DNA of 64,000 nucleotides from Candidatus Levyibacteriota bacterium (lineage in GTDB: Bacteria > Patescibacteriota > Microgenomatia > Levybacterales > UBA12049): assembly GCA_029260965.1 (NCBI GenBank), contig JAJDCG010000001.1, positions 376,012 through 440,011 on the forward strand, in the 5' to 3' direction. Each line of letters opens with the position of its first letter. Position 1 is the first letter of the stretch. Under the pieces are notes generated by a model. It was not told the DNA's origin and did not search any database. It was given only the letters and a program-made list of their open reading frames with translations. A program made the position numbers and the translations under genes. Below are positions 18,297-63,070 of the stretch, in pieces.

Positions 18297-18757
18297 GATA
18301 TTTTTGTGATTTTGTATTTGAATTTTCCAGTCGGAGTTTCGATCTCTACCTCTTCATTTAGAGACTTTCCTACAATAGCTTTTCCAACAGGAGAAAGAAG
18401 CGAGAGCTTGCCTGCTGAGGGTTCTGCTTCAGTGTCACCTACGATTTGATATGTTTTAGTGCGTTTTCCATCAGTTAGTGTTACCTGGCTTCCTATATAT
18501 ACAGAATCAATTGGGTGAGTAGTCCCATCACGATTAGTTATATCTGCGCGTTTTAAAAGATCAGAAAAGCGTCTCAGTCTGCCGTCGATAAATCCTAGCT
18601 TTTGCTTGGAAGCCTTGTAATAGCCATTTTCCGAGAGGTCTCCGAGCTCACGTGATTTTTTTACATCCTCAATTACGAGTGGTCTTTGTTTGAGGAGCTC
18701 ATTATATTCACCCTTTAATTTATCGTATCCTTCTTTTGTAAATCTAACTTTATTCAT
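18293..18757 (-). CDS. greA: transcription elongation factor GreA
   Basis: N-terminal coiled-coil with conserved acidic tip (RELGDLSENGYYKASKQ) and a C-terminal FKBP-like domain. 154 aa. Overlaps the recJ stop by 8 nt, consistent with an operon. Confidence 0.85.
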   Translation of the reverse strand: MNKVRFTKEGYDKLKGEYNELLKQRPLVIEDVKKSRELGDLSENGYYKASKQKLGFIDGRLRRFSDLLKRADITNRDGTTHPIDSVYIGSQVTLTDGKRTKTYQIVGDTEAEPSAGKLSLLSPVGKAIVGKSLNEEVEIETPTGKFKYKITKIS

Positions 18758-20447
18758 AAATTTTTACATCTTTTATTTTTAGTTGGAGCTTGGTGTTTCC
18801 GTTCCAGGTGTTTTTATCAATAGAGTAGGCAATATCCACTGTGGATTTCTTTTTTAATTTTACCGTTAGTTTTCCCATTCCAAAAGCGATTGCTTCATGG
18901 CTTATGGATTCAGGTTTTTGGTTCTTGGAGCTCAGTTCTAGCCTCAGGTGGCTTTGATCTTTTCCCAATAGCCTGAAGTCTTTAACCCAAACATCTCGCG
19001 TTATAAAAACTGGTTCAGGATTCCCCATGCCAAACGGTGCAAGCGTTTGAATAGTATCATATAGTGATGTGTTAATACATGCTAATTCAAGTTCGCAGTC
19101 AATTTTTAGTTTTCTTTTTAACAAGTCATCCGTGATTGCGATTTCTGCTGCTTTTTCTAGTGTTTTGATCAGGCTGTCCAGGTTTTTAGTTTTTATAGTA
19201 AACCCTGCTGCCATTGGGTGTCCACCTATATCCGTGAAGAATTTGGGGTGTGATCTGAGAAAATCAACTATGTTGAATCCCGGGATAGACCTTACAGAGG
19301 CTTTAGAATATTCATCGCCGATTGAAATAGCAATCGATGGTCGATAGAATTCTTCAACTAGTTTTCCAGCTATAAGTCCTATTACGCCTTGTTTGTATAA
19401 TTGATCCGCAACAATTAATATTTTTTTACTTTTTATTTTTTGCTTTTTGTTTACTTCTTGTATTGCATGTTCTGTTGATTCTTTGAGTATGTGCTGGCGA
19501 TCGCGATTTATTAACTCGAGTTTCTGTGCAAGAGTTCTAGCTCGATTTGCGTCTTTCGTACACAAAAGTCTCAGGCTGTCCATGGCAGATTCCATGCGTC
19601 CTGCAGCATTTAGTCGGGGTGCTATAATATAGCCAACATCATAGATTGAAAATAGTTTTTTTTCTATTTTTGCTTCATTAAAAAGTTCTTTTAGTCCCAT
19701 GCGTTGTGATCTCCCCAAAGCTCCAAGTCCAAATTTGGCAATCGTGCGGCTAGTGCTAGTTAGTGGTACGAGATCAGCAACTGTTCCAAGCATTGCTAGC
19801 TCGAGATGAGAATCCTGAGGGTGTGGCGCGTGGCGTGTGGTGCGTATTTCTTTTGCGAGTAGATAAGCAACAGCTGCGCCACAAATCTTTGTAGTATGTA
19901 TTGTAGTAAATGCATTCGGCAAAATTTTTCCGACAGTATGATGATCGGTTATTATTACATCAATATTTTTTGTTTTTGCAAAATCAACAGCATCATGCGC
20001 AACAATTCCGTTATCAACAGTAATTATGAGGGAGACATTTTTGCTTTTTGATTTTTGTTCTAGAATTTTTTCAATTCCACGAATCGAAAGTCCGTATCCT
20101 TCATCAATTCTGTGTGGGATATATGGCATCACATTGCCATTCATTGCATGAATTGTCTCCCAGAGTATCGCTGAACCCGTGATGCCATCAACATCATAGT
20201 CACCATATATGATTATTTGTTCTTTATTATCAACAGCTTTTAGGATGCGTTTTACAGCTTTCTTGAGATTGGTAGTATTTATGTCGACGTTTTTTGCGTT
20301 TACTTTTGAGATGTCTGGATTTAGAAATTCTTCCTTGTCTTTTTTTGTTTTTATATTTCTATTTTCAAGTAATAAATCTATTAACCCTTCATTTTGCCAC
20401 TTGTCACTTATGATCCGTGATTTATTTAAAATTTTCCATTCTTTCAT
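18750..20447 (-). CDS. recJ: single-stranded-DNA-specific exonuclease RecJ
   Basis: DHH motifs: IIIYGDYDVDGITGSAIL, ITDHH and GGHPMAAG (DHHA1). Confidence 0.85.
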   Translation of the reverse strand: MKEWKILNKSRIISDKWQNEGLIDLLLENRNIKTKKDKEEFLNPDISKVNAKNVDINTTNLKKAVKRILKAVDNKEQIIIYGDYDVDGITGSAILWETIHAMNGNVMPYIPHRIDEGYGLSIRGIEKILEQKSKSKNVSLIITVDNGIVAHDAVDFAKTKNIDVIITDHHTVGKILPNAFTTIHTTKICGAAVAYLLAKEIRTTRHAPHPQDSHLELAMLGTVADLVPLTSTSRTIAKFGLGALGRSQRMGLKELFNEAKIEKKLFSIYDVGYIIAPRLNAAGRMESAMDSLRLLCTKDANRARTLAQKLELINRDRQHILKESTEHAIQEVNKKQKIKSKKILIVADQLYKQGVIGLIAGKLVEEFYRPSIAISIGDEYSKASVRSIPGFNIVDFLRSHPKFFTDIGGHPMAAGFTIKTKNLDSLIKTLEKAAEIAITDDLLKRKLKIDCELELACINTSLYDTIQTLAPFGMGNPEPVFITRDVWVKDFRLLGKDQSHLRLELSSKNQKPESISHEAIAFGMGKLTVKLKKKSTVDIAYSIDKNTWNGNTKLQLKIKDVKIYE

Positions 20448-20496
20448 GTTTTTGGTTTGCTATACTATAACAGACCCCGTTAGGTGGGACAAGAAT

Positions 20497-21978
20497 ATGA
20501 TTGATAAGTCTAGTACAAAAAAGATAGTTAGTAATCCCTCTCAAGCAAAGAGTGGCAAGTCAGTTCTGGATAAAATTCCGCAACACATACTTGATATTGA
20601 TAAGAAATTTCGTGGTGCAGGATTTGAAATATATCTTGTAGGTGGACCTGTCCGTGATCTACTGAGCGGTAACAAGGTAAAAGACTGGGATTTTACTACA
20701 AATGCGACGCCTCAGGAGATACAAAAGCTTTTCCCAGAAAATGTGTATGAAAATAATTTTGGTACAGTTGGCATAAAAGTAGACGGTTTGATTGAGGCGG
20801 AACATGCTGGAGTTGTAGAAGTTACAACTTATCGTACAGAAAAAGGATACTCGGACAACAGGAGGCCTGATAGCGTTACATGGGGAAAGACAGTTGAGGA
20901 TGATTTATCTAGGAGGGATTTTACTATTAATGCTATGGCTCTGAATCTAGCAGAAAGCAAAAAGGATAAAAAAAATAGTGAGAAAAATTTAGCGTTCGAT
21001 ACTTCAGGGTTTACTCTTGTAGATCCATTTGATGGACAGACTGATCTAAAAAATAAAATTATCAGATCAGTAGGTGATCCTGCGGTCAGATTTAAAGAGG
21101 ATGCGCTTAGACTTATGAGGGCTATCCGATTTGCGATACAACTCCAATTTGATATAGAAGAAGCAACATTGAGGGAGATAACAAACGATGCAAAATTATT
21201 GGAAAATATAGCTAATGAGCGGATTCGTGATGAACTGATGAAAATACTCGGAAGTGATTTTCCGTACGAAGGTGTCTCTCTATTAAAGAATACAGGTTTG
21301 CTAGAGCATATAATTCCAGAACTTTTGGAAGGAGTTGGTATATCTCAGGAGAGGCCAGGAAGACATCATAAAGACGATGTTTTTACTCACAATGTTTTGT
21401 CTCTCAAATTCTGTACATCAAAAGACCCGATAGTTCGCTTTGCAACACTTATTCATGATGCTGGTAAATCACGCGTTGTTGGGAAAGATCAAGATGGATT
21501 GGTTATTTTTCATAATCATGAGATGGCTGGTGCAAAATTGGCATATGAAATTTGTCAAAGACTAAGATTTTCTAAAAAAGATCGTGAAAAAATTGTAAAA
21601 CTAGTCAGATGGCACATGTTTACAGTGGATGAACATATAACAGATGCTGCTGTTAGAAGATTTATCAGGAGAATAGGAGTTGAAAACGTACAGGACATGA
21701 TGGACTTGAGAGTTGGTGATAGGTTGGGTGGGGGCACACAGACTGCAGAAAGCTGGAGACTAAAGCTTTTCAAAAAAAGGCTTGATGAGCAGATGGCACC
21801 TGCGCCTTTTTCTATAAATGATCTTGCAATTGATGGAAATGATCTAATGAAGGAACTCAACATGAAGCCTGGGCCAAAAATAGGAGCCATGCTTCAGAAG
21901 CTATTTGAAGAGGTAGATGAGGATATGGGCAAGAATAACAAGGAATATCTCCTTAAGAGGATTCACGAGTTGACATGA
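20497..21978 (+). CDS. cca: CCA-adding tRNA nucleotidyltransferase with HD domain
   Basis: Polymerase-beta head motif FEIYLVGGPVRDLLSG...DWDF. RxxRxxRF motif (LRLMRAIRFA). C-terminal HD region (THNVLSL...HDAGK). The ORF opens at 20209 but the first ATG after recJ is at 20497. Confidence 0.8.
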   Translation: MIDKSSTKKIVSNPSQAKSGKSVLDKIPQHILDIDKKFRGAGFEIYLVGGPVRDLLSGNKVKDWDFTTNATPQEIQKLFPENVYENNFGTVGIKVDGLIEAEHAGVVEVTTYRTEKGYSDNRRPDSVTWGKTVEDDLSRRDFTINAMALNLAESKKDKKNSEKNLAFDTSGFTLVDPFDGQTDLKNKIIRSVGDPAVRFKEDALRLMRAIRFAIQLQFDIEEATLREITNDAKLLENIANERIRDELMKILGSDFPYEGVSLLKNTGLLEHIIPELLEGVGISQERPGRHHKDDVFTHNVLSLKFCTSKDPIVRFATLIHDAGKSRVVGKDQDGLVIFHNHEMAGAKLAYEICQRLRFSKKDREKIVKLVRWHMFTVDEHITDAAVRRFIRRIGVENVQDMMDLRVGDRLGGGTQTAESWRLKLFKKRLDEQMAPAPFSINDLAIDGNDLMKELNMKPGPKIGAMLQKLFEEVDEDMGKNNKEYLLKRIHELT

Positions 21979-25350: not shown

Positions 25351-25423
25351 GGCCCCATCGTCTAGTGGCCTAGGACGTCAGGTTCTCATCCTGGAGACCG
25401 GGATTCGACTTCCCGTGGGGTCA
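25351..25423 (+). tRNA. tRNA-Glu (anticodon CTC)
   Basis: Acceptor GGCCCCA/TGGGGTC. D-arm TCGTCTAGTGGCCTAGGAC, typical of tRNA-Glu. Anticodon stem TCAGG/CCTGG with loop TTCTCAT. T-arm CGGGA-TTCGACT-TCCCG. Discriminator A. Confidence 0.7.
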
Positions 25424-25467
25424 CTGTTTTATTTGTGCCTCTTCTTGAGTTTTAGTATAATTATCCA

Positions 25468-26226
25468 ATGAAAGATATTTTTTTGTCTGTTGTGGTGCCT
25501 TGTTATGATGAGATGGCCAATTTGCGCAAAGGCGTTCTGGATAAGATTGCGCATTTTTTGACAAAAAAGAGTTTTTCGTACGAAGTGATCATAGTTGATG
25601 ATGGATCAACTGACGGAAGTGTCGAGTTTATAGAAAAGTTTATCAAAGAAAACTCCCGTTTCAGGCTTATCAAAAATCCCCATTACGGCAAGGCAGGTGC
25701 CGTGACAACAGGAATGCTGCAGGCGAGTGGCAAATACAGGCTTTTTACTGATATGGATCAGGCAACACCTATTGAAGAGATTGACAAGCTACTTCCCCAT
25801 GTCAAAAATGGAGCAGATATAGTGATAGGCTCGAGAAAAGGTCAGCGTAAAGGTGCGCCATTTATCAGGCTTTTTGTTTCGCGCAGTTCTATAATTCTCA
25901 GAAAAATTGTTGTGGGGCTTCCGAGGATCTCTGATACTCAGTGTGGGTTCAAGCTATTTTCAGAAAATGCAGCAGTTGATCTTTTTGGCAAATTGATAAA
26001 AATCAAGAAAGGATTCAAAAAAGTTTCAGGACCTGCTGTGACATACGGATCAGACATAGAGCTTCTTTATTTGGCGGATAAGATTGGATATAAAATAAAA
26101 GAAGTCCCAGTTGAATGGCTTTTTGTTGAGTCGCGAAGAGTTAGTCCAGTGCAGGATTCTGTGCAGGGAGTATTGGATCTTCTGACAATAAAGAAAAATA
26201 TAGTCTCTGGAATATATGATGTTTAG
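25468..26226 (+). CDS. GT2 glycosyltransferase, DPM1/GtrB-like polyprenyl-phosphate sugar synthase
   Basis: LSVVVPCYDE, IIVDDGSTDGS, DxD-like TDMDQ. About 250 aa single GT-A domain without TM segments. Confidence 0.8.
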   Translation: MKDIFLSVVVPCYDEMANLRKGVLDKIAHFLTKKSFSYEVIIVDDGSTDGSVEFIEKFIKENSRFRLIKNPHYGKAGAVTTGMLQASGKYRLFTDMDQATPIEEIDKLLPHVKNGADIVIGSRKGQRKGAPFIRLFVSRSSIILRKIVVGLPRISDTQCGFKLFSENAAVDLFGKLIKIKKGFKKVSGPAVTYGSDIELLYLADKIGYKIKEVPVEWLFVESRRVSPVQDSVQGVLDLLTIKKNIVSGIYDV

Positions 26227-26240
26227 ACACTTTTGACAAT

Positions 26241-27446
26241 ATGATTCGAATCATGAGAACAAAAATAATGTTTTATTTTCTGCTTATTTTTGGGCTTTTT
26301 CTTTATTCGTTTACTCAAGTTGATCTTTCTCTTACCGTCTCGCGTAGTTTATTTCTGAATAATATAATTGACTCTTTTCAGCATATAGGTTTTTTCATGA
26401 GACCTCTGTCAACTTATATTTTTTCAGCAATAGTGCTAGCGCTTTTTGGTTTTTGGTTTTATTTTTTGAATCTAGCAAGGGAAAATAAAATAGATAAAAG
26501 AAATATTTGGAAAATCATAATTATTACGAGTTCAATACTAATTTTCTCATACAATGCTTTTTCGTATGATTTATTTAATTACATATTCGACGCAAAAATA
26601 TTCACCCACTATGGTCTCAATCCATATCTTCACAAAGCACTTGATTTTCCAGGAGATCCGATGCTCTCTTTCATGCGCTGGACGCATAGGGTGTATCCAT
26701 ATGGACCTGTTTGGCTTGCGCTTACTGTGCCCTTATCATACTTGGGGTTAAATTTTTTTATTCCGACATTTTTTCTTTTTAAACTTTTTATTGGTGCATT
26801 TTTTGTGGGCAGTATTTATTTTATAGGTAAGATATTACAAAAAATAGCTCCGAAAAAAGAAGTCTTGGGACTTGTTTTTTTTGGGCTCTCTCCATTGGTG
26901 CTCATCGAAAGCTTGGTGAGTGCGCATATTGATATCGTAATGGTGTTTTTCGTACTTTGGGCGACATACAGTCTGGTAAACAAAAAATATATTTTGTTGA
27001 TCCTACTGTTTTTAATCTCAATTGGGATAAAATTCGCAACTGTATTTATATCTCCAGTTTTTTTCTGGATTTGGATACGGAGAGGAAAGACGAGTTTGGA
27101 GAGCATGTTTTCATTTGCTGTAATTCTACTTATTTTGTCGGCACTTGTCTCATCCTACTACAGTGGCAATTTTCAGCCTTGGTATCTTCTCCTTCCTTTG
27201 AGTTTCGCTGCATTTGTGTCATATAAATATTACATTTTCATTCCATCTGTATTTGTCTCAATTTTTGCGATTTTTAATTATGTGCCCTATCTTTATTTAG
27301 GCAATTGGGACCCTCCAGTTCCTGAGTTTTTATTTTGGATACAAATAGGTTCAGTGATTGTCTCAATTTTAGCGGTGGCAGCTTATTTCTTATATCAAAA
27401 ATCAAAAGTTAAAAATCAAAAATATAATTCAAAAGGAAAAAGTTAG
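26241..27446 (+). CDS. GT-C membrane glycosyltransferase, GT87/DUF2029-like (polyprenyl-P-mannose-dependent mannosyltransferase-like)
   Basis: About 11 TM segments. First-loop motif SYDLFNY...GLNPY...YPYGPVW resembles the DUF2029/PimE-type D..Y...G.NPY...YPP signature. Confidence 0.5.
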   Translation: MIRIMRTKIMFYFLLIFGLFLYSFTQVDLSLTVSRSLFLNNIIDSFQHIGFFMRPLSTYIFSAIVLALFGFWFYFLNLARENKIDKRNIWKIIIITSSILIFSYNAFSYDLFNYIFDAKIFTHYGLNPYLHKALDFPGDPMLSFMRWTHRVYPYGPVWLALTVPLSYLGLNFFIPTFFLFKLFIGAFFVGSIYFIGKILQKIAPKKEVLGLVFFGLSPLVLIESLVSAHIDIVMVFFVLWATYSLVNKKYILLILLFLISIGIKFATVFISPVFFWIWIRRGKTSLESMFSFAVILLILSALVSSYYSGNFQPWYLLLPLSFAAFVSYKYYIFIPSVFVSIFAIFNYVPYLYLGNWDPPVPEFLFWIQIGSVIVSILAVAAYFLYQKSKVKNQKYNSKGKS

Positions 27447-27460
27447 CTTATTATACTATA

Positions 27461-28990
27461 ATGGTAGAAAGTTTTATGGAATTTATAAAAAGAAATTACT
27501 TTTCGATTTCAGTCATGGGGTTAGCAGTTTTGTACTTTACGCTTCGTCTTAATAATATTCTTTCGCTTCCTATATTCACTGATGAAGCAATTTATGTTCG
27601 CTGGAGTCAGATCGCATCAAACGATGCAAGCTGGCGGTTCATCTCACTTACCGATGGCAAGCAGCCAAGTTTTGTCTGGATCGCCATGATTTTGATGAAA
27701 TTTATCTCTGATCCGCTTTTGGCAGGTCGTTTGGTTTCTGTTTTTGCTGGTGTAGGTTCTGTCATAGGAATTTATTTTTTGGGAAGCGAGTTATTTAAAG
27801 ATCGGAAAATAGGTCTTCTGGCGAGTTTGATTTATGTAGTATTTCCATTTGCATTAGTGTATGACCGTCTCGCATTATACGATTCATTGGTTGGGATGTT
27901 TATCATCTGGGCAATGTATCTGGAGGTGCTTTTGGTGCGCAAGCCTCGTCTTGATACAGCACTCATATTGGGTATGGTAATCGGTGCTGGTATGCTTACC
28001 AAGACCAGTAATAATTTTGCGTTTATACTTCTTCCTTTTTCGCTTCTTTTGTTTGATTTTAAAAACAAAAAATGGAAGGAAAATCTTAAAAACTGGATAG
28101 TCTTTGCACTCATTGCAGTAGGACTGTCGCAGGTGATGTATGCAATTCTTAGACTTTCACCTTTTTATCACATTGTTTCAGATAAAAATGCAGTATTTGT
28201 TTACCCGATTAGTGAGTGGATCAGAAGTCCTTTTGCTTTTTTTACTGGCAACATAAAAGGACTTACGAGTTGGCTTTTTACATACATGAGTTATCCGTTT
28301 ATAGTTTTGGTGGTCTCTTCTTTTTTGATAGATAAAAAAACTTTTAGAAAAAAATTATTTTTGCTTGTATGGTTTGCTGCTCCGTTTTTCGCGCTTGCTC
28401 TTTTTGGTAAAGTAATATATCCGAGATTTATTCTTTTTATGAGCATGCCTCTTCTTCTTCTCGGAGCATATGCTTTGTTTAATCTGGTAAGAACAGCAGA
28501 AAAAAAATGGATGAAAATCACGATTCCTTTTGTCTTCCTGGTGGGTTTTATAATAAATGATTATTTCATTGTTACAGATTTTTCAAAAGCTTCCATACCG
28601 ACTGCTGATCGTGAACAATTTATCACGGATTGGCCAGCAGGTGTGGGTGTGAAGGAGACGGTTGAGTTTTTGAGACAAGCATCTAGCAATGAAAAGTTGT
28701 TTGTAGCAACACAGGGGACGTTTGGTCTTATGCCATATGCCTTGGAAATCTATCTTTCAGACAATCCAAATATAGAGATAAAAGGATATTGGCCGATTGA
28801 GGATCATCTAAGTCAGGAAATATTGGAAAAATCAAAAGAAAAGAAAACATATTTTATTTTTTACCAACCATGTCCTCCGTGCATGAAAACTGGTGTTGCA
28901 CCAAGTCAATATCCTCTTAAAGAGGTATTCCAAATAGAAAAAGAGCAAATGGGTAGTTATTACACTCTTTATGAAGTTCAAAACCTTTAG
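27461..28990 (+). CDS. GT-C membrane glycosyltransferase, ArnT/PMT-like (GT39/GT83-like)
   Basis: First extracytoplasmic loop carries FTDEAIY (DE motif) between TM1 and TM2. About 11 TM segments plus a C-terminal soluble domain. Confidence 0.55.
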   Translation: MVESFMEFIKRNYFSISVMGLAVLYFTLRLNNILSLPIFTDEAIYVRWSQIASNDASWRFISLTDGKQPSFVWIAMILMKFISDPLLAGRLVSVFAGVGSVIGIYFLGSELFKDRKIGLLASLIYVVFPFALVYDRLALYDSLVGMFIIWAMYLEVLLVRKPRLDTALILGMVIGAGMLTKTSNNFAFILLPFSLLLFDFKNKKWKENLKNWIVFALIAVGLSQVMYAILRLSPFYHIVSDKNAVFVYPISEWIRSPFAFFTGNIKGLTSWLFTYMSYPFIVLVVSSFLIDKKTFRKKLFLLVWFAAPFFALALFGKVIYPRFILFMSMPLLLLGAYALFNLVRTAEKKWMKITIPFVFLVGFIINDYFIVTDFSKASIPTADREQFITDWPAGVGVKETVEFLRQASSNEKLFVATQGTFGLMPYALEIYLSDNPNIEIKGYWPIEDHLSQEILEKSKEKKTYFIFYQPCPPCMKTGVAPSQYPLKEVFQIEKEQMGSYYTLYEVQNL

Positions 28991-30659
28991 TATTTTACTA
29001 GTCATTATTTTGCTTGCAATTTTTCTCCGGTTTTTTCGACTGGACAGTATCCCAAATGGGCTTTATCAGGATGAGACATCAATAGGTTATAGCGCATATT
29101 CGATAATTGAGACAGGAAAAGACGAGTATGGAAAAGATTTTCCTGTTTATTTTAAATCATTTGGAGACCAGAAGTTGCCTGTTTATATTTACTCGACAGT
29201 TGCATCTGTTAGGATGTTTGGTTTAACCCCGTTCGCAGTACGAACACCGTCCGCGTTTTTTGGCGTGCTGTCAGTTGTTGCATTTTTTTTCTTCGTTAAA
29301 TTTTTTACAAAAAGTGAAAATTTAGCACTCACATCAAGTTTTCTGCTTGCGATAAATCCATGGAGTCTTCATTATAATCGTGCAGCATTTGAGGTGAGCA
29401 TAGGACTTTTCTTGTTTATTGTTGGTGGATATCTACTTGGAAGATTTTTCAAAAACAGAACAAAGGGTGCATTTTTGGGAGGGACAATCTGTTTTGTATT
29501 GGCACTTTATTCTTATAATCTGACTCGACTTTTATCTCCGCTTCTTTTTCTTTTTTTTGTTTTTGTGTATAGAAATAAATTAAAAAGCGTATCAAAAAAA
29601 GAAGTAATTATAGCTATCACAGTTGGAGGATTTATGTTGATACCCTTTCTGACAAGCCTGATGGCTCCAGGTGGTGTTTCTTCAGCAGCAGGAACGCTTA
29701 TCAATTCGAGCGCAGTAGCTCAGGCACCCATTGCGGAATTGAGGGCATATATGCTTGCTCTCCCTACAGGTTTTGATAAGTTATTTTTTAATAAATATGT
29801 GCTTACTGGATGGCAATACGTCCAGAATATTTTTTCATATTTTTCTGTTGATTTTTTCTTTCTCAAAGGTTCTGGACACGGTAATCATGGAATGGGCAAT
29901 ATGGGATATTTTTATTTAGTAGAGTTGCCTTTTATTTTAATCGGAATTATTAGTTTTATCCGTAATAAAATTGCAGGGTTTGGCATGCTAATTGGATGGG
30001 GGGTAATTACAATTATGGTAGCCTCGCTTACTAGAGAAGCACCACATGCAACCAGGAGTTATTTTTTAACTGTCCCGTTAATTATTTTTTCAGGCGCTGG
30101 AGTAATTAGTGTATTTGAATATTTAAAAAAAGTTAAGTCGCAGTATTTAAGAAATTTATTAATTTTGATAATTTCTATATCAGCTTTTTATAACTTAACT
30201 TATTATTTTTTAAATTATTATATACGTTTTCCAGTTGCGTTTGCCGAAGACTGGAGGGCGCAGGACGTAGAATTGGTAAATTATCTAAAAAAAAATGAAG
30301 ATAAGTTTGAAAAAATAATTATTGATCCTAGGTCAAAATTTATTTACACTTCTCATCTTTTTTATACGAAATACGATCCTATTATGTTTCAGGAAACAGT
30401 AAAGCGATCACCTGATGATCCAGAGGGTTTTAGCGTTGTTAGATCTTATGGAAATTTTGAATACAGAGATATTGATTGGGAGGAGGATCTAAATTCACCA
30501 AAAACTTTAATAATTTCTTCTCCTGATTTTGCGCCTTATGATCTGGATGCGGATTTTATTGTTTTTCACCCTGAATATCCTGTTGCATTCGCAAAGGATC
30601 AGAAAGTAATACTGAATTTGGTGAATGATAAAGCATATGTCTTATTTGAAACAAAATAA
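28971..30659 (+). CDS. GT-C membrane glycosyltransferase, PMT_2-like paralog 1
   Basis: YQDETSIGYSAYSIIETGKDEYGKDFPVYFKSFGDQKLPVYIY and FGLTPFAVRTPSAFFGVL, shared with the ORFs at 43300, 44955 and 49830. C-terminal soluble domain with REAPHATRS. Confidence 0.65.
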   Translation: MKFKTFSILLVIILLAIFLRFFRLDSIPNGLYQDETSIGYSAYSIIETGKDEYGKDFPVYFKSFGDQKLPVYIYSTVASVRMFGLTPFAVRTPSAFFGVLSVVAFFFFVKFFTKSENLALTSSFLLAINPWSLHYNRAAFEVSIGLFLFIVGGYLLGRFFKNRTKGAFLGGTICFVLALYSYNLTRLLSPLLFLFFVFVYRNKLKSVSKKEVIIAITVGGFMLIPFLTSLMAPGGVSSAAGTLINSSAVAQAPIAELRAYMLALPTGFDKLFFNKYVLTGWQYVQNIFSYFSVDFFFLKGSGHGNHGMGNMGYFYLVELPFILIGIISFIRNKIAGFGMLIGWGVITIMVASLTREAPHATRSYFLTVPLIIFSGAGVISVFEYLKKVKSQYLRNLLILIISISAFYNLTYYFLNYYIRFPVAFAEDWRAQDVELVNYLKKNEDKFEKIIIDPRSKFIYTSHLFYTKYDPIMFQETVKRSPDDPEGFSVVRSYGNFEYRDIDWEEDLNSPKTLIISSPDFAPYDLDADFIVFHPEYPVAFAKDQKVILNLVNDKAYVLFETK

Positions 30660-32211
30660 AAACAACATACTAATAATTTTATTTTTGATCGTGGTTATGT
30701 TACCAGCGGTTTTTCCACTTCTGAGAGAGGGTTTTTTCGTAACAGATGATGCAGAGTGGATGATAATACGTTTTTCTGCATTTCATGAAGCATTTCGTGA
30801 TGGTCAATTTCCAGTTCGATTTTTAGGAAGGTTAAATCATGGGTTTGGCTATCCAGCACCCACATTTTTATATCCAGGTTTTATGTATATTGCAGAAATT
30901 TTTCATCTCCTTGGAGTTGAATTTTTAGAGAGTATAAAAATGGTTATTTTATTTTCTATTGTTTTGTCGGGTATATTTACCTTTTTTTGGTTGAGAAAGT
31001 TTTTTACTTTACTACCATCTTTTATAGGAGCAATTGTTTATGTTTATTCACCCTATCATTTATATGATGTGTATGTCAGAGGTTCTGTAGGGGAGGTGCT
31101 TGCGATTGCAGTCCTTCCTTTTATACTCTGGCAGATCGAGCGAAAAAGCGTTTTCTGGACAGCACTGAGTATTGGGCTTTTGATACTTTCCCACAATATA
31201 TTGGCTGCTATGTTCGTACCGCTAATTGTTGCATATATGATTCTTGATTGGTATGTGCTGAAAAAAACACAGACACATTTTTTTATTCAAACTGTTTTTT
31301 TTGGACTCGGAATATCTTCGTTTTTTTGGATACCAGCATTAACTGAATTAAGACATACAGTTTTTCTTGATACAAATATTTCTGATTGGAGTAGATATTT
31401 CGCAGATATAAATTTGATAGGAACCAAAACTTTGGCAGTTCTTCTTTTTGCATTGATCAGTATGGTAAGTAAAAAAATATCGATAAAAAAGCATCGTCTT
31501 AGTGTGTTCTTTTTTATAGTAGGTACCTTGGTAGTTTTTATGTCAAGTGTATTAAGTATGTTTATTTGGAAATTTTTTCCTGTTCAGTTTATCCAGTTTC
31601 CATACCGCTTTTTATCAATAGCGCTTATCAGTACGGCTTTTTTGATGGCAGTAAACATCACTGTTTTAACAGGGGTTAGGAAAAAGTTTTTTATTGGGTT
31701 GGTAGTTGTTATTTTAGCTATCCCATTTTTTGCTCGTATGAGGGCTATTGAGTTTATTGACAAAGGTAACGGGTTTTATGCGACTAACAATGCAACAACC
31801 ACCATACACGATGAATATATGCCTGTTTGGGTAAAGGAAATTCCAATGACTGGTGTGTATAATAAAGTAGAGATTATCAATGGCGATGGGGGTGTAAAAG
31901 ACTTGATAGTAACAAATGACATGATCAAATTTACGACAGATATAAAAAGTACTGCTGTTGCACGGGTAAACACAATTTATTGGCCAGGATGGAAAGTCAG
32001 TATTAATCAGGTGCCTGCTGATTTAGATTATTCAAATAAAAAGGGAGTAATGGACATAAAGGTTCCCAGGGGGCTATCTGTGGTTGAGCTGACTTTCGAT
32101 GAGACCCTGATGAGAATGTTTGCAAATACAGTATCTATGACTAGTATGATATTTTTGATACTTATTGCCTTGATAAACAAGAAAAATAAATTTTTATTAT
32201 GGAATTCGTAA
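30625..32211 (+). CDS. polytopic membrane protein, 6-pyruvoyl-tetrahydropterin-synthase-related family (putative GT-C)
   Basis: N-terminal DDAEWMIIRFSAFHEAFRDGQFPVRFLGRLNHGFGYPAPTFLYP fits the PTPS-related membrane family signature (DD..H..R...G.FP.RW...GYGYP.F.FY.PL). About 13 TM segments plus a C-terminal beta-rich domain. Confidence 0.5.
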   Translation: MIKHMSYLKQNKNNILIILFLIVVMLPAVFPLLREGFFVTDDAEWMIIRFSAFHEAFRDGQFPVRFLGRLNHGFGYPAPTFLYPGFMYIAEIFHLLGVEFLESIKMVILFSIVLSGIFTFFWLRKFFTLLPSFIGAIVYVYSPYHLYDVYVRGSVGEVLAIAVLPFILWQIERKSVFWTALSIGLLILSHNILAAMFVPLIVAYMILDWYVLKKTQTHFFIQTVFFGLGISSFFWIPALTELRHTVFLDTNISDWSRYFADINLIGTKTLAVLLFALISMVSKKISIKKHRLSVFFFIVGTLVVFMSSVLSMFIWKFFPVQFIQFPYRFLSIALISTAFLMAVNITVLTGVRKKFFIGLVVVILAIPFFARMRAIEFIDKGNGFYATNNATTTIHDEYMPVWVKEIPMTGVYNKVEIINGDGGVKDLIVTNDMIKFTTDIKSTAVARVNTIYWPGWKVSINQVPADLDYSNKKGVMDIKVPRGLSVVELTFDETLMRMFANTVSMTSMIFLILIALINKKNKFLLWNS

Positions 32212-33941
32212 AAAAGAATATTTTTATAATACTACTTTTGATTTTGTCTTATTGGTCTTTGAAGCCACTATTTCACTCTAATTTTTTTCCAATACATGAC
32301 GACATACAGGTTGCAAGAGTTTTTGAAATGCACAAGGCACTAGATGACGGCATGTTTCCTGTGAGATGGAGTCAGGGTCTTGGTTATAATTTTGGATATC
32401 CGATATTTAATTTTTATGCACCCCTAGCTTATTATCTTGGGGCATTAGTAATGATATTGGGATTAGACGCTTTGTCTGCAACAAAAGTCATGATGGGGGT
32501 GGGAATATTGCTTGCTTTGGTTGGGATGTACTTGTTTGCTAAAGAGATTTGGGGTAGAAGGGGTGCTTTTATTTCAGCACTTTTATATTTATATGCACCA
32601 TATCATGCAGTGGATATTTATGTTAGAGGAGATGTTGCAGAGTTTTTTGCGTATGGTTTTATCCCGTTTGTTTTCCTTGGGATTTATAAAATTTATAAAA
32701 CAACAAAGGAGTATGTTGATGTTAAAAACAAAAATAAAATTTCTGCTCTTAAAAAGAAAATATGGAATTGGGTAATTCTTGCCTCTTTGTCGTTTGCAGC
32801 TGTTATACTTTCTCACAACCTAAGTGCGATGATGGTGACACCATTTTTACTTATATTTTCCTTTTGTTTGTATATTAGCTTGCGAAGAAAAGAAAAATTG
32901 TACAATCCTTATTTTATTTTTTTGAGTTTGATAGTGGGTATTCTAATTGCAGGATTTTATTGGGTACCAGTATTTCCGATGATGCAGTACACAGATGTAT
33001 TGTCAGTGGTAGGTGGAGGATCATATTACGGAGATCATTTTGTATGTATTGGTCAATTGTGGGATAGCCCTTGGGGATTTGGTGGTTCTGCGCCTGGATG
33101 TATTGATGGTATTTCACTAAAGATAGGAAAACCTCATTTGCTTCTTGGATTGACATCTCTCATTATGCTAAGTTTTTTTAGAAAAAAGCTAAAATATAAC
33201 AAAAAAGTAGTATGGTTTTTTACTTTTTCATTTGTTTTTTCAATTTTTTTGACAATTGAACAATCAAAATTTATTTGGGACATTTTATCTCCAATGGCAT
33301 TTTTTCAATTTCCTTGGAGATTTTTACTTGTTGCTACTTTTTTTATCTCATTCTTGGGTGGGGGACTTTTTTATGTTTTGGATATGATTATTTCAAATAA
33401 TAAAAGACTTAATCCTTTTTATACACTTTTCCTATTAACAATAGCATGTGCGATCTTGTTTTATAATGCAAAGCTTTTTAATCCACAAATTTTTAATACC
33501 AAGACAGTCGAGGATTATACATCTTTTGACGAGGTATCATGGCGAGTGTCAAAGCTATCTGATGAATATATGCCACCAGATTTTTTTAGACCCTTGGGCA
33601 TTCGGGTCGTGCCCAAAAACAAAATAATGAACACCATGCAAGTTAAAATTTTGGAGCAAATAGAAAAAACAAACCATCTCTTTGCAGTCGTTGAGGCATC
33701 GTCTGAATCAAAACTGACTGTAAATCTTGCCTATTTTCCTGGGTGGCATGTCTATATCGACGGTAGACAAGAGTGGTTTAGTTACTTCAACCAGGGTTTA
33801 ATCATAAATATTCCAGAGGGTAGGCATGATCTAGACATTGTTTACCAGCAAACACCCGTACAGATAATGGGAAACATACTTACTATCACTGGATCACTAA
33901 TACTTCTTATTGGTATAATTAAACTCAAGAAAGATAAATAA
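32199..33941 (+). CDS. polytopic membrane protein, PTPS-related family, tandem paralog
   Basis: HDDIQVARVFEMHKALDDGMFPVRWSQGLGYNFGYPIFNFYAPLAYY. C-terminal YFPGWHVYIDG parallels IYWPGWKVSIN in the upstream paralog. Confidence 0.5.
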   Translation: MEFVKKNIFIILLLILSYWSLKPLFHSNFFPIHDDIQVARVFEMHKALDDGMFPVRWSQGLGYNFGYPIFNFYAPLAYYLGALVMILGLDALSATKVMMGVGILLALVGMYLFAKEIWGRRGAFISALLYLYAPYHAVDIYVRGDVAEFFAYGFIPFVFLGIYKIYKTTKEYVDVKNKNKISALKKKIWNWVILASLSFAAVILSHNLSAMMVTPFLLIFSFCLYISLRRKEKLYNPYFIFLSLIVGILIAGFYWVPVFPMMQYTDVLSVVGGGSYYGDHFVCIGQLWDSPWGFGGSAPGCIDGISLKIGKPHLLLGLTSLIMLSFFRKKLKYNKKVVWFFTFSFVFSIFLTIEQSKFIWDILSPMAFFQFPWRFLLVATFFISFLGGGLFYVLDMIISNNKRLNPFYTLFLLTIACAILFYNAKLFNPQIFNTKTVEDYTSFDEVSWRVSKLSDEYMPPDFFRPLGIRVVPKNKIMNTMQVKILEQIEKTNHLFAVVEASSESKLTVNLAYFPGWHVYIDGRQEWFSYFNQGLIINIPEGRHDLDIVYQQTPVQIMGNILTITGSLILLIGIIKLKKDK

Positions 33942-34660
33942 TGGAAAATAAGCTATCAGAATTATCAATATTTTTTCCTTTTTGGGATGAGGAACAAAAT
34001 GTCAGGGGAGTAGTTACGCAAGCAATTCCTATTGCTGAAAGTGTGGCGAAAAAATGGGAAATTATCATGATTGACGATGGATCAGCTGATAAAACTTTGG
34101 AAGTAATGAAGGATATGGCAGAAAAAGATAAAAGACTTAAAATAGTTCATCACAAAATAAATAGAGGTTATGGTGCAGCTCTAAGATCAGGTTTCGAAAA
34201 TTCGCAATATAAATATATAGTCTTTACAGATGGAGATGGGCAGTTTGATTTTTCAGAAGTAGATAAGTTTGCAGAAAAAATAAAATCAGCTGACATAGTT
34301 GTAGGTTTTCGAAAAAAGAGGCGTGACCAAAAGATATTAAAAAGGCTTCTCTTGATGAATCTTTTGAAAGTATGGGATTTTATACTTTTTAGATTTTATT
34401 TCAAAGACATTGATTGCGGATTTAAGATGTTTAGAAAAGAAGCTATTGAAAAATTGAATCCGCTTAGATCAGAGGGTGCGATGATAACATCAGAAATATT
34501 TGCGAAAGCAAAAAGAAAAAAATTAAAACTGGACGAGGTCGGTATTACCCATTATCCACGAACTGTTGGTCATCAAAGTGGTGCAAATATCCCCGTAGTT
34601 GTACGTGCAGTTCTTGAGAGTTTCATTCTCTGGTACGATTTACATTATGGAAGGACCTGA
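33941..34660 (+). CDS. GT2 glycosyltransferase, DPM1/GtrB-like
   Basis: IIMIDDGSADKT, FTDGDGQFD (DxD). 239 aa, no TM segments. Confidence 0.8.
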   Translation: MENKLSELSIFFPFWDEEQNVRGVVTQAIPIAESVAKKWEIIMIDDGSADKTLEVMKDMAEKDKRLKIVHHKINRGYGAALRSGFENSQYKYIVFTDGDGQFDFSEVDKFAEKIKSADIVVGFRKKRRDQKILKRLLLMNLLKVWDFILFRFYFKDIDCGFKMFRKEAIEKLNPLRSEGAMITSEIFAKAKRKKLKLDEVGITHYPRTVGHQSGANIPVVVRAVLESFILWYDLHYGRT

Positions 34661-36104
34661 CCTACTTCATATAGGGAGGCAATCATTGCGTGGGGTTCTG
34701 GCGCTTTCGTCAAGGACATTTTTTCTGCAGCTTATTTCTTTTGGTACTTTTTTTGTTATCTCTACTTTTCTATCCCCGGTTGAAATAGGTATATACACTG
34801 CTGTAGTTGCAGTTCAACGTGTCATTAATTTTTTTACGGATTTTGGTCTCGGTGCTGCTCTTATCCAGAAAAAAGAAGCCTTAACTGATGAGGACTTAAA
34901 GACAAGCTTTACTATGCAGGCTGCTATAACCTTTTTGATATTTTTGCTGGTGTTTTTTAGCAGTAATCAGTTGGCTAGTTTTTTAAATCTTAATTCAGAT
35001 GGCGAAATGCTTCTTTTAGCACTTGTTTTTACTATTTTCATCTCATCGTTTAAGACAATACCATCGATCCTGCTTGAGAGAAAGATTCAATTTCATAAAT
35101 TAGTAATCCCTCAGATCGTAGAGAGCTTAGTATTTAATTTAATACTTGTGGTTCTTGTTATAAAGGGGATGGGCGTTAATAGTTACACATACGCATTTTT
35201 GATCTCTAGCATAGTCGGTCTCCCTTTTTATTATCTAGTCTCTCCATGGAAAATTGGCATTGGTGTTGATAGAAAATCTTTATCTCACCTGAAGTTTGGT
35301 ATCGCGTATCAGGGTAAAAATGTCATAGCAACAATAAAAGATGATCTATTGACTGTTATATTAGTTAGATTTCTTCCATATGCAGAAATAGGGTTTATCG
35401 GTTTTGCACAAAGAATAGCCTTTTTTGTTTATCGATATGTTGTTGATAGTGTAACCAAGGTTACTTTTTCATCGTATGCGCGCATACAGCATGATACAGC
35501 CCTGCTTAGGAAGGCTGTAGAAAAGTCTCTTTTCTTTGTCAGTGGTGTAATGTTTCCACTTTTGATGGGAATTATTCTGGTTGTTCCATATTTTATTGAC
35601 TATTTCTCCAAATGGAACAACAAATGGGAACCAGCGATTATTAGTATTGTATTTTTTAGTCTAAATGCAGCAGTGTCTTCTCTTTCAGGAATTCTGATTA
35701 ATGCACTTGATGCTACAGGACATGTTAAAAAAACTCTTCAGCTTATGATTATTTGGACTATTATTACTTGGACTTTGACGCCTTTATTAATATTCAAATT
35801 GGGCTATAATGGAGTTGCGGCCGCGTCATTCGTGACCTCACTTACTGTTTTTTACACAATATATCTTGTTAAAAAGATTGTTGAGTTTAGTTTGATAAAA
35901 AGCACTTATAAAGCTGTATTAGCAACCATGGTTATGGGAGCTGTAATAACCATTTTGGGAACTTTTTTCATAACAGATATGGTAAAACTTTTTATAACTA
36001 TTGCTGTGGGAGGTCTAATCTATCTAGGTGTTTTTTATGTCCTTGCAAGGCAGGAAATTCGTGAGGGCTTAATACTAGCTTTTAAAAAAAATGACAAAGA
36101 ATAA
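34647..36104 (+). CDS. oligosaccharide flippase (MOP/Wzx family)
   Basis: About 12-14 TM segments with a typical Wzx-like N-terminus (LRGVLALSSRTFFLQLISFG). 14-nt overlap with the upstream GT2. Confidence 0.65.
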   Translation: MEGPDLLHIGRQSLRGVLALSSRTFFLQLISFGTFFVISTFLSPVEIGIYTAVVAVQRVINFFTDFGLGAALIQKKEALTDEDLKTSFTMQAAITFLIFLLVFFSSNQLASFLNLNSDGEMLLLALVFTIFISSFKTIPSILLERKIQFHKLVIPQIVESLVFNLILVVLVIKGMGVNSYTYAFLISSIVGLPFYYLVSPWKIGIGVDRKSLSHLKFGIAYQGKNVIATIKDDLLTVILVRFLPYAEIGFIGFAQRIAFFVYRYVVDSVTKVTFSSYARIQHDTALLRKAVEKSLFFVSGVMFPLLMGIILVVPYFIDYFSKWNNKWEPAIISIVFFSLNAAVSSLSGILINALDATGHVKKTLQLMIIWTIITWTLTPLLIFKLGYNGVAAASFVTSLTVFYTIYLVKKIVEFSLIKSTYKAVLATMVMGAVITILGTFFITDMVKLFITIAVGGLIYLGVFYVLARQEIREGLILAFKKNDKE

Positions 36105-36996
36105 AAAAATATCAGTTGCAATTTGTGCCTTTAATGAGGAAGAAAATATTGAAAGATGTCTGAAGTCTCTAAAATGGGTAGATGAAATAGTGGTGGTTGA
36201 TCCGGGATCTACTGATAAGACCTCTTCTGTAGCAGGTAAATATACTGATAAAATTTTTACTCATAAGAATCCTGGATTTGTTGAGCCACTGCGTAATTTT
36301 TCAATACAAAAAACAACAGGAGAATTTGTGTTGGTCATTGATGCAGATGAGGAAATATCTAGTACTTTGGCGAAGAAGCTAAGGGAGATTGCGGAGAATA
36401 ATAGTGCTGATATAGTAAAGATTCCGAGAAAGAATTTTATTTTTGGTAAATGGATGCAGGCTTCTATGTGGTGGCCAGATTATCATGTGCGTTTTTTCAA
36501 AAAAGGAAAAGTTGTTTGGGGAGATGGAATACATAGCGTTCCAAAAGTTGAGGGACGGGAGGTAAGGCTTGATTTAAAAGAGGAGAATGCAATTATTCAC
36601 CACAATTACGACAATCTATCAGAATTCGTTAAAAGAAATAGTTATTATAGTAAAATCCAGGCAAAAGAACTTTTTGATAGTGGTTATCGATTTGTATGGA
36701 CAGATCTGGTTAGAAGGCCACTGGGCGAGTTCCTTGGTAGATTTTTTGCCAATAAAGGCTATAAGGACGGGCTGCATGGACTAGCATTGAGCATGCTTCA
36801 GGCTTTTATGTTTCTTCTTCAATATATTTATATTTGGGAACTACAAGAATATAAAGATCAGGAGATCTCTTTGAAAGTACTAAAAAAAGAGGCAAAATCC
36901 GCAGGCAAGGAGCTAAAATACTGGTTTGATTTTTCAAATTTTTCTCGTAATCCTACTGCCCGTTTTTTTCAAAAAATAAAAAACAAAATATCATGA
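36091..36996 (+). CDS. GT2 glycosyltransferase
   Basis: ISVAICAFNEEENIERCL...VVVDPGSTDKT, DADEE. 14-nt overlap with the flippase gene. Confidence 0.8.
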   Translation: MTKNKKISVAICAFNEEENIERCLKSLKWVDEIVVVDPGSTDKTSSVAGKYTDKIFTHKNPGFVEPLRNFSIQKTTGEFVLVIDADEEISSTLAKKLREIAENNSADIVKIPRKNFIFGKWMQASMWWPDYHVRFFKKGKVVWGDGIHSVPKVEGREVRLDLKEENAIIHHNYDNLSEFVKRNSYYSKIQAKELFDSGYRFVWTDLVRRPLGEFLGRFFANKGYKDGLHGLALSMLQAFMFLLQYIYIWELQEYKDQEISLKVLKKEAKSAGKELKYWFDFSNFSRNPTARFFQKIKNKIS

Positions 36997-37898
36997 CGAA
37001 GATCACCGCTGTTACGGTTAACTATAATACAAAAAAACAAACCATTGAGTTTTTAAATTCGATTAAAAAAATAAATACTCCAAATATTGAACTAAAAAAA
37101 ATAGTAGTTGATAATGGTTCAGTTGATATTTTCCCATCTTCTCAGAAGGGGGATGCGATCCTTTTACGTTCTGAAGATAATCTTGGATTTACAGGAGGAT
37201 ATAATTTAGGAATAAAAAAAGCGTTAGAAGATTGTGCTGATTACGTGCTGGTAATTAATAACGATACTGCAGTTGATAGAAATTTTTTGGTAAATCTTTT
37301 GAAAGGTTTTGATAAAGAAAAAGATACAGGATTGGTTGTCCCGAAAATTTACTTTGCAGAGGGGCATGAGTTTCATAAAAGCAGGTATAAAAAGTCTGAT
37401 TCTGGAAAAGTACTATGGTATGCAGGGGGACATGTCGATTGGGATAATATAAAAGCCATTCATCGCGGATTGGATGAGGTGGACAGGGGGCAGTTTGATC
37501 GGATGCAAAAAATTACTTTTGCAACAGGTTGCGCTGTTCTTGTAAAAAAGGAGGTTTTCGAAAAAATCGGTTTTTTTGATGATGATTATTTTCTTTACTA
37601 TGAAGATTTAGATTTTTCTTTCAGGGCGAAAAGAGCAGGATTTGAGATAGTTTATGCACCAGGTGCAATAGTCTATCATTTTAATGCATCATCTACTGGA
37701 GGATCGGGGTCAGGCCTGCATGATTATTTCTTGACTCGTAATCAAATGCTTTTAGGCATAAAATATGCACCTCTGAGATCAAAACTCGCGCTTGTGAGAC
37801 AAGGTTTGAAGCTGTTACTTAACGGCAGAAAATATCAGAAAAAAGGAATAAAAGATTATTATTTAAAGAAATTTGGAAAAGGGAGTTATTTTGAATAA
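36993..37898 (+). CDS. GT2 glycosyltransferase (rhamnosyltransferase-like)
   Basis: ITAVTVNYNT, VVDNGS, YYEDLDFSFRA (DxD / ED motif). Confidence 0.8.
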   Translation: MTKITAVTVNYNTKKQTIEFLNSIKKINTPNIELKKIVVDNGSVDIFPSSQKGDAILLRSEDNLGFTGGYNLGIKKALEDCADYVLVINNDTAVDRNFLVNLLKGFDKEKDTGLVVPKIYFAEGHEFHKSRYKKSDSGKVLWYAGGHVDWDNIKAIHRGLDEVDRGQFDRMQKITFATGCAVLVKKEVFEKIGFFDDDYFLYYEDLDFSFRAKRAGFEIVYAPGAIVYHFNASSTGGSGSGLHDYFLTRNQMLLGIKYAPLRSKLALVRQGLKLLLNGRKYQKKGIKDYYLKKFGKGSYFE

Positions 37899-59373: not shown

Positions 59374-59490
59374 AATTTTATATATTTCATTTTCCTAATC
59401 TCATTTCAGAATTTAAAATGGTTTTCATAAGGAAAGTGTTCTTGTAAAATCAAAGAGTTATTTTAAAATAAAATTTATTATAAATTATTT

Positions 59491-60474: not shown

Positions 60475-60479
60475 TTAAT

Positions 60480-63059: not shown

Positions 63060-63070
63060 ACGAATATATA

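Follow-up and report, generated by a model that had tools for sequence, protein, structure and literature searches.

The described systems closest to the enzymes considered here are of several kinds. In mycobacteria and corynebacteria, Ppm1 feeds MptA and MptB, and the GtrA/GtrB/GtrC proteins of Shigella and Salmonella phages (YfdG/YfdH/YfdI of Escherichia coli CPS-53) follow a logic of synthase, flippase and polytopic transferase. In the dolichyl-phosphate mannose synthase of Pyrococcus furiosus (PfDPMS), a type III enzyme, the metal ligands are Asp91 and Gln93 of 89-DADLQH-94, and dolichyl phosphate is bound by Arg117, Arg131 and Ser135 on the first interface helix (IFH1), while human DPM1 has no transmembrane segments and requires DPM3 (PMC5526996). 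The GacI/GacJ/GacK/GacL proteins, which act on the side chain of the group A carbohydrate of Streptococcus pyogenes, were classed by Rismondo et al. as variant b of the "multi-component transmembrane glycosylation system" (PMC8035078), and GacI, GacK and GacL provide a precedent for a cytoplasmic GT-A enzyme combined with a Wzx flippase and a PMT_2-type GT-C glycosyltransferase (PMC8035078; 10.1101/180810). Here we describe three family 2 glycosyltransferases, GT2-A, GT2-B and GT2-C, encoded in a 64,000-nt stretch (the window, meaning the whole of this DNA) of a Candidatus Levyibacteriota bacterium (assembly GCA_029260965.1, contig JAJDCG010000001.1, positions 376,012 to 440,011). Sequence comparison supports their membership in the GT2 clade that acts on polyprenyl phosphate (DPMS/ALG5, GtrB and ArnC), and we consider it likely that the three enzymes load sugars onto a polyprenyl lipid carrier and in this way feed the GT-C enzymes of the window, which, about a dozen in number, would decorate the cell surface. 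In its composition the system is closer to GacI/GacK/GacL or Ppm1/MptA than to GtrABC.

All three genes lie on the plus strand. GT2-A (25468–26226, 252 aa, PF00535 at 1.9e-25) is a putative polyprenyl-phosphate hexose synthase of the ALG5/DPMS type, GT2-B (33941–34660, 239 aa, PF00535 at 3.8e-26) is a putative polyprenyl-phosphate glycosyltransferase of the ArnC/GtrB type, and GT2-C (55837–56655, 272 aa, PF00535 at 4.1e-18) is a DPMS-like GT2 whose metal motif is the variant DAGMD and which carries an insertion of about 20 aa. PF00535 (Glycos_transf_2) is the sole substantial Pfam match in each of them, and none has a transmembrane segment, as no 19-residue hydropathy window reaches 1.6 or more. 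A preliminary description of this DNA had reported three DPM1-type GT2 reading frames at these positions, lacking transmembrane segments and extra domains, and they are present as described. Of the lengths it gave (252, 239 and 273 aa), the first two agree with ours, and the third, which we measure as 272 aa, depends on the start codon chosen; alternative starts lie at a TTG at 55807 and at about 55846, the latter being the gene caller's choice, and the length ranges accordingly from about 269 to 282 aa. The motifs it ascribed to all three proteins (VV-P-Y-E, DDGS-D and DxD) hold for GT2-A (LSVVVPCYDE, VDDGSTDGS and DMDQ) and for GT2-B (LSIFFPFWDEE, IDDGSADKT and DGDGQ) and fail for GT2-C, where LSVVIPSYKQE is followed by VIDGKVDKT in place of DDGSxD and by DAGMD in place of DxD.

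The window holds nine GT2s in all, and the best BLASTP partners of GT2-A, GT2-B and GT2-C are one another (7.5e-19 for A against B and 2.4e-14, across 239 aa, for A against C). They are diverged paralogues with 24–30% identity, and a profile-profile alignment of the GT2-A family with the GT2-C family gave a probability of 99.4% and an E value of 1.9e-21. Each of the three families is about 60–80% identical across hundreds of Levybacteria-type genomes. The remaining six GT2s (301, 301, 253, 317, 271 and 327 aa) form two groups, one made up of the genes starting at 36091, 37898 and 57866 and the other of those at 36993, 59491 and 42339. These six had been expected to be larger than the three candidates, and two of them (253 and 271 aa) are of the same size, while all six do fall into other subgroups. 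The window is AT-rich, with a G+C content of 30–40%, and its plus-strand genes from 25.4 kb to 63 kb form one run with hardly any gaps.

When compared with the sequences of solved structures, GT2-A matched PfDPMS at 1.7e-16, Synechocystis GtrB at 4.7e-12 and ArnC at 3e-11. GT2-B matched ArnC best (2e-14), followed by GtrB and DPMS, and GT2-C matched DPMS (5.4e-9), its sole other significant GT2 match being chondroitin synthase at 3e-4. Searches with family profiles placed DPMS first for GT2-A (3e-18), ArnC first for GT2-B (2e-20, over residues 5–212) and PfDPMS first for GT2-C (2.5e-19, five orders of magnitude ahead of the next match). Three other GT2s of the window, used as controls, went elsewhere, with PcManGT the best solved-structure match of the 42339 protein, GmaR and SunS those of the 37898 protein and GalT1/K4CP-type enzymes those of the 59491 protein, and none of the three matched DPMS or GtrB.

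The predicted folds point in the same direction. The AlphaFold2 (AF2) models of GT2-A (mean confidence, pLDDT, 85) and GT2-C (pLDDT 80) are GT-A folds with helices at the positions of IFH1 and of the second interface helix (IFH2), and the top Foldseek matches in the PDB are exclusively DPMS, GtrB and ArnC, over the top 25 for GT2-A and the top 15 for GT2-C. Next in rank after these lipid-phosphate enzymes come the soluble GT2s WrtF, GpgS and RmlT. We also built a neighbor-joining tree with ArnC, YfdH/GtrB, WcaA, WcaE and PgaC of E. coli K-12 as references, together with DPMS and GtrB fragments taken from printed alignments, and within this small reference set the split between the A, B and C families with ArnC, GtrB and DPMS on one side and the other six GT2s with WcaA, WcaE and PgaC on the other was recovered in 184 of 200 bootstraps. 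The proposal that the three proteins group with DPM1/GtrB/ALG5 and not with processive GT2s is thus upheld by the tree, and the family assignment itself is borne out by sequence for all three and by predicted fold for GT2-A and GT2-C.

Automated annotation gives similar names. Close relatives of GT2-A are labeled dolichyl-phosphate beta-glucosyltransferase (ALG5-type) by the Joint Genome Institute (JGI), some relatives of GT2-B are labeled dolichol-phosphate mannosyltransferase (DPM1-type), and the best NCBIfam match of GT2-B is AglJ (2.3e-19, below cut-off). A DTQCGFK motif common to GT2-A and GT2-C appears to resemble the signature of ALG5, which would be in line with the JGI glucosyltransferase label. 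A search of a phage collection with GT2-A returned just weak matches, to genes annotated as DPM1-like and YfdH. Taking the sequence evidence together, we regard GT2-A as very likely to be a polyprenyl-phosphate glycosyltransferase and GT2-B as quite likely to be one, and for GT2-C the balance tips slightly toward the same activity.

The residues that bind metal and lipid phosphate in PfDPMS, whose equivalents we read from HMMER alignments, are largely in place. GT2-A and GT2-B keep a metal motif of the DAD-x-Q type seen in PfDPMS. That of GT2-A is D95-M-D97-Q98, and DMDQ is invariant in its family; R123, R134 and S138 of GT2-A align with PfDPMS R117, R131 and S135, the two arginines being invariant and the serine present in 80% or more of the family. 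In GT2-B the DGDGQ motif is conserved in the family and R124 is invariant, with the remaining two lipid-phosphate positions less surely aligned. The corresponding triad of GT2-C has lysine in first position (K146, R159 and S163), all three residues are invariant in the family, and the surrounding YPxYRKxxSKG is nearly identical to the WPFYRKLISKG of PfDPMS IFH1. PfDPMS differs from all three proteins in its four-helix GtrA-like membrane domain, which is missing from GT2-A, GT2-B and GT2-C and is seen only in fused relatives, and it differs from GT2-C in the metal motif.

The metal motif of GT2-C reads D117-A-G119-M120-D121, and D117, G119, M120 and D121 are invariant in a family alignment of 35 sequences; DAGMD is also conserved over the 120 best hits. 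On this alignment evidence GT2-C retains the acceptor site while its DxD is altered, with glycine for the second Asp and Asp121 at the position of PfDPMS Gln93, and the alteration is a family-wide variant and not a sequencing error. DAGMD may represent a shifted metal site. The acceptor site and the nucleotide-binding half of GT2-C are strongly conserved, which argues for an active enzyme.

The gene order around GT2-A provides the second main line of evidence. From 402 genomes that match a GT2-A profile we took a synteny sample of 80 species-level genomes, and in 78 of 78 usable loci, all from Levybacteria-type genomes, a gene for an MptA/B-like GT-C starts at most 300 nt 3′ of GT2-A. A PMT_2 homologue lies downstream in 59 of 59 loci, homologues of the two PTPS_related genes described below (30625-type and 32199-type) lie downstream in 57/59 and 58/59, and GT2-B is found on the same strand within 10 kb of GT2-A in at least 36 of 59. 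Upstream neighbors are less well kept (Lon in 19/64 loci and tRNA-Glu in 22/74), and the junction between GT2-A and the GT-C gene is therefore conserved well above background synteny. In the window, a tRNA-Glu(CTC) gene at 25351–25424 (+) lies 44 nt upstream of GT2-A. The pairing is reminiscent of Ppm1 and MptA/MptB, where a DPMS-type catalytic domain without helices of its own is paired with a GT-C of the MptA/B family, and here the pairing, with a GT-C that is MptA/B-like, takes the form of a fixed gene adjacency. Unlike the Ppm1 system, no Lnt-like or Ppm2 membrane partner is seen in the window, the JGI orthology of GT2-A is to a glucose enzyme (ALG5) and not to a mannose enzyme, the match of the neighboring GT-C to MptA is far below the family cut-off, and the host is a Levybacteria-type member of the candidate phyla radiation (CPR) without known lipomannan.

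Natural fusions link the same domains. Relatives of GT2-A with 38–45% identity occur as GT2 + PMT_2/PTPS_related proteins (P0408 and P0414), others are fused to GtrA_DPMS_TM (P0407 and P0458), the domain type that PfDPMS also carries, and in one (P0498) an MprF-type LPG_synthase_TM (flippase) domain is joined to the GT2. A GT2-A homologue with 45% identity also sits among PMT_2 genes and a GT2-PMT_2 fusion (locus L093, 1114–3294), while the distant homologues P0370 and P0390 lie on contigs of less than 2.2 kb, where the context is uninformative. Together with the gene adjacency, these fusions sustain the link from GT2-A to GT-C enzymes that had been proposed. The topology of a synthase fused to a GT-C is odd, since the synthase makes its donor in the cytoplasm and the GT-C uses it on the outer side.

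The five polytopic proteins that trail GT2-A, with 14-nt gaps or overlaps, are all encoded on the plus strand. The first (26241–27446, about 10 transmembrane segments) is an MptA/B-like GT-C glycosyltransferase by a precomputed PF26314 MptA_B_family hit; our local Pfam scan of this protein, unlike the precomputed one, gave no hit, TIGR03459 (MptA) matches it at 9e-12 with 44.6 bits against a cut-off of 439, and its matches among solved-structure sequences are at chance level only. The second (27461–28990) is a PMT_2 GT-C of the ArnT/PMT kind (PF13231 at 1.2e-14, PF02366 at 2.7e-7, and the ArnT model NF009784 at 5e-7, below cut-off), and the third (28971–30659) is PMT_2-like, with a weak PF13231 match (1e-4) and an Agl23-like match to TIGR03663 (1e-9, below cut-off). 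The fourth (30625–32211) and fifth (32199–33941) are PTPS_related membrane proteins that we presume to be GT-Cs, the former with PF10131 at 3.4e-11 and about 12 transmembrane segments, the latter with PF10131 at 1.9e-10 and a YfhO-type C-terminus (PF09586 at 4.7e-6). The statement that the first GT2 directly precedes five GT-C genes agrees with this order, with an MptA_B-like gene in the place of the GT87-like gene named earlier, followed by one PMT_2, one weak PMT_2 and two PTPS_related genes whose products are presumed GT-Cs.

Further GT-C genes lie downstream, again on the plus strand. A YfhO-family GT-C (PF09586 at 1.1e-24) is encoded at 40035–42326, and five polytopic proteins form a tandem run at 43300–51371, with PF13231 matches of 3e-13, 2e-9 and 5e-4 and paralogy by BLASTP. 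Four of the five (43300, 44955, 46644 and 49830) are PMT_2-like paralogues and the other (48374) is an unassigned protein with about 10 transmembrane segments. The 28971 protein is paralogous to these four (1e-18 to 6e-81), which makes five related PMT_2-like paralogues (24–40% identity), four of them in one tandem; in a small genome such a local expansion is unusual. The run is followed, at 51359, by the gene for a 195-aa protein with about five transmembrane segments.

GT2-B, as had been described, directly precedes a flippase gene. Its end overlaps the start of a MOP/Wzx-type flippase at 34599–36104 (+; PF13440, Polysacc_synt_3, at 1.7e-45; NF007773 at 2.5e-30, below cut-off), and this adjacency recurs in three of the sampled loci (L001, L003 and L004). 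The genes around GT2-A and GT2-B are packed, with gaps of at most 14 nt. The flippase gene is followed by three GT2s, of which the first (301 aa) recurs in L004 and is kept in 14 of 59 loci. Two GT2s of this module, at 36091–36996 and 37898–38659, are paralogues with 30% identity, and the 37898 protein resembles the protein/peptide glycosyltransferases GmaR (1.9e-15) and SunS, a possible sign that proteins or peptides are glycosylated in the cytoplasm.

GT2-C belongs to a module of its own, all on the plus strand. A GalE-like nucleotide-sugar (NDP-sugar) 4-epimerase (52087–53064, PF01370 at 5e-59) comes first, then a GT4 glycosyltransferase (53127–54158, PF00534 at 1.8e-32), then a second MOP-type (Polysacc_synt_3) membrane protein with about 12 transmembrane segments (54573–55859, PF13440 at 7.7e-13) that overlaps the start of GT2-C, and after GT2-C a further GT4 (56718–57869, PF00534 at 7.5e-34) as the last conserved gene. 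The flippase next to GT2-C was absent from the preliminary description. The order epimerase, GT4, flippase, GT2-C, GT4 is conserved in three relatives (L010, L011 and L012), each with a polytopic gene at the flippase position that has Polysacc_synt hits in L010 and L011 and no recorded Pfam hit in L012. In two of the three relatives examined (L010 and L011), the distance between the module and the GT2-A cluster ranges from tens of kilobases to about 1 Mb; L012 has a PMT_2 gene about 4 kb upstream of the module. A 127-aa open reading frame (ORF) at 54193–54576 (+) fills the sole sizeable gap of the module, between the GT4 and the flippase, and the gene at this position in L010 has PF05635 (23S rRNA intervening-sequence protein) and bAvd hits.

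The gene content of the locus is close to that of the Gac system, where a cytoplasmic GT2 makes the undecaprenyl-phosphate sugar and with which the locus shares a GT2 without membrane helices, a flippase of the Wzx/MOP type (not GtrA) and a PMT_2-type GT-C. Here, one locus combines GT2-B with 34599, GT2-C with 54573 and the PMT_2 genes 27461, 43300 and 44955; the differences are that no DUF2304/GacJ-like ORF was found in the window and that there are at least 10 GT-C genes in place of one. The GtrABC system offers the same order of steps, and GtrB appears near the top of both the sequence and the fold matches. GtrB, however, has two C-terminal membrane helices and GT2-A, GT2-B and GT2-C have none, and identity to E. 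coli YfdH is low (BLAST scores of 22–49 bits). No GtrA-family (PF04138) hit was obtained in any scanned ORF of the window. GtrB proper is ruled out as the identity of the three proteins by the lack of transmembrane helices and the lack of GtrA in the window. GtrB/flippase/GtrC had been proposed as the template, and this template is wrong because neither GtrA nor a membrane partner was found in the window and the synthases lack an anchor of their own; the flippases present are of the MOP/Wzx type.

The pathway that we favor can be set out as follows, with the lipid acceptor, the sugar, the flipping step and the use by GT-C enzymes all being what we infer. GT2-A, GT2-B and GT2-C would be peripheral membrane proteins on the cytoplasmic side, each holding a nucleotide sugar with its N-terminal GT-A half and its metal site (DMDQ in GT2-A, DGDGQ in GT2-B and DAGMD in GT2-C). 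Undecaprenyl (polyprenyl) phosphate would be held by the Arg/Lys-Arg-Ser triad of the first interface helix, and the product would be a polyprenyl-monophosphate sugar. The MOP/Wzx-type flippases 34599 and 54573 would carry the lipid-linked sugar outward, where the window's GT-C enzymes, ten or more in number (MptA/B-like, PMT_2, PTPS_related and YfhO), would pass it to surface acceptors, and GT2-A would be coupled specifically to the adjoining MptA/B-like enzyme. The preliminary description had proposed a pathway of synthase, flippase and GT-C, multiplied several-fold; its outline is the best supported account, the GtrABC particulars do not fit, and the GT2-C module does not include the GT-C that the scheme calls for.

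Several observations weigh against this pathway. None of the three GT2s has a transmembrane anchor of its own, no GtrA, DUF2304/GacJ or DPM3-like small membrane partner was found among the ORFs of the window (one may be encoded elsewhere in the genome), and a hydrophobic-moment analysis did not set the putative interface helices apart from ordinary surface helices by greater amphipathicity. GT2-C has glycine for the second Asp of DxD, and the GT2-C module proper contains no GT-C, its neighbors being GT4s and the epimerase. MOP/Wzx flippases usually transport diphosphate-linked oligosaccharides. No NCBIfam equivalog model reaches its cut-off for any GT2, so no sugar can be assigned. With family profiles, chondroitin synthase trails the polyprenyl-phosphate enzymes by 1 to 5 orders of magnitude; the sequence separation from generic GT2s is only moderate because the shared N-terminal half supplies much of the score. 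The neighbor-joining tree was built by a simple method on a small reference set, and the 80 synteny loci all belong to a single lineage and hence are not independent.

Some of these observations would fit a different use of the same chemistry, in which GT2-B and/or GT2-C start a monophosphate-linked oligosaccharide on the lipid, the neighboring soluble transferases (three GT2s after GT2-B, two GT4s around GT2-C) extend it, the adjacent MOP protein flips it and one GT-C transfers it en bloc. These two enzymes would then do more than supply monosaccharide donors. Archaeal AglJ begins a lipid-monophosphate-linked oligosaccharide on dolichyl phosphate in this manner, and AglJ is the NCBIfam model that GT2-B matches best. 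This account could apply to GT2-B and especially to GT2-C, whose five-gene module has no GT-C and is distant from the GT2-A cluster in two relatives, and the succession of GT2-B, flippase and three GT2s, the first of them recurrent among the sampled loci, would suit it as well. No WecA/WbaP-type phosphoglycosyltransferase was found among the scanned ORFs of the window, which leaves room for a monophosphate-linked start, and MOP/Wzx proteins (here with NF007773 and Oglyco_Wzx matches) typically flip oligosaccharides. The flippase type is not decisive, though, as the Wzx-type GacK has been proposed to flip a monosaccharide lipid (10.1101/180810). Moreover, the GT2s 36091 and 37898 resemble GmaR/SunS and so may not work on a lipid-linked glycan, and the large excess of GT-Cs in the window needs several monosaccharide donors. 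We consider an oligosaccharide start unlikely on balance, while giving it some weight.

If, instead, the likeness to DPMS, GtrB and ArnC were ancestral only, the three proteins would be ordinary soluble Leloir GT2s whose acceptor is not a lipid and could be, for example, a growing polysaccharide, a small phosphorylated metabolite or a protein. The lack of a transmembrane segment and of a membrane partner in the window would then be expected, as would the closeness of chondroitin synthase in sequence score and of WrtF and glucosyl-3-phosphoglycerate synthase in the fold ranking of GT2-C (6e-11 versus 1e-14). However, the residues that bind the phosphate of dolichyl phosphate and the IFH1 sequence are conserved, the top fold matches of GT2-A and GT2-C are all lipid-phosphate enzymes, GT2-A-like domains are fused to GtrA/DPMS membrane, GT-C and MprF-type flippase domains, and GT2-A invariably adjoins a GT-C gene; DPMS-type enzymes without transmembrane segments also exist, as in human DPM1 (which needs DPM3) and GacI. 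We therefore judge a soluble role for all three to be improbable. Still less credible is that GT2-C alone is impaired in catalysis or has been put to another use, serving the adjoining flippase or GT4s as a partner that either does not catalyze or works without metal. The invariance of DAGMD in the 35 family sequences, its conservation in the 120 best hits, and the role of Asp91 as a metal ligand in PfDPMS (PMC5526996) would be compatible with such a loss, but the PfDPMS D91A mutant retains residual activity, the invariant Asp121 aligns with the metal ligand Gln93 and could take over metal binding, and the nucleotide-binding half and acceptor residues are strongly conserved.

A few features of the window and of the sample stand apart from these enzymes. 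The G+C content falls to 27–30% at 58000–64000, against about 35% elsewhere, in a region with a GT2, a GT4 and three methyltransferase genes, possibly a variable glycan cassette that was acquired recently or is evolving fast. At 20209–21978 (+), the ORF of a CCA-adding/HD-domain enzyme (589 aa) has a hydrophobic, low-complexity start that overlaps a RecJ-like gene (18750–20447, −), and translation probably begins near residue 95 (MIDKSS...). Many of the Levybacteria-type genomes that carry the cluster (L014, L015, L018, L020 and others) are titled "uncultured Gammaproteobacteria bacterium" and other cluster-bearing genomes Sulfotelmatobacter, Limnocylindrales or Acidiferrales, which are evidently placeholder or wrong labels.

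The logic of the pathway proposed here is textbook, and the enzyme clade and the automated ALG5- and DPM1-like names are established, so that the advance is incremental. What is new is modest: the fixed pair of synthase and MptA/B-like enzyme, the large GT-C battery of the Levybacteria, and the DxGxD variant of the GT2-C family. CPR-directed full-text literature searches and a term search of a 2024 perspective on Patescibacteria returned nothing on lipid-linked glycosylation in CPR bacteria, and glycosylation as such goes unmentioned in that perspective. As a speculation that we hold to be doubtful in its full form, Levybacteria might keep a fixed core of an anchor-less ALG5/DPMS-like synthase and an MptA/B-like GT-C, together with about ten variable GT-Cs, that uses polyprenyl-monophosphate sugars to assemble a glycopolymer or lipoglycan of the surface wholly outside the cell, in the way that mycobacteria make lipomannan, with the GT2-C family using a new DxGxD site whose metal ligand lies two residues downstream. 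The analysis proposes a concrete role for three CPR protein families that are very widely distributed and highly conserved, and it would explain how donors are supplied to an unusual concentration of GT-C enzymes in reduced genomes, in epibiotic bacteria for which surface glycans are likely to be important in attachment to the host.

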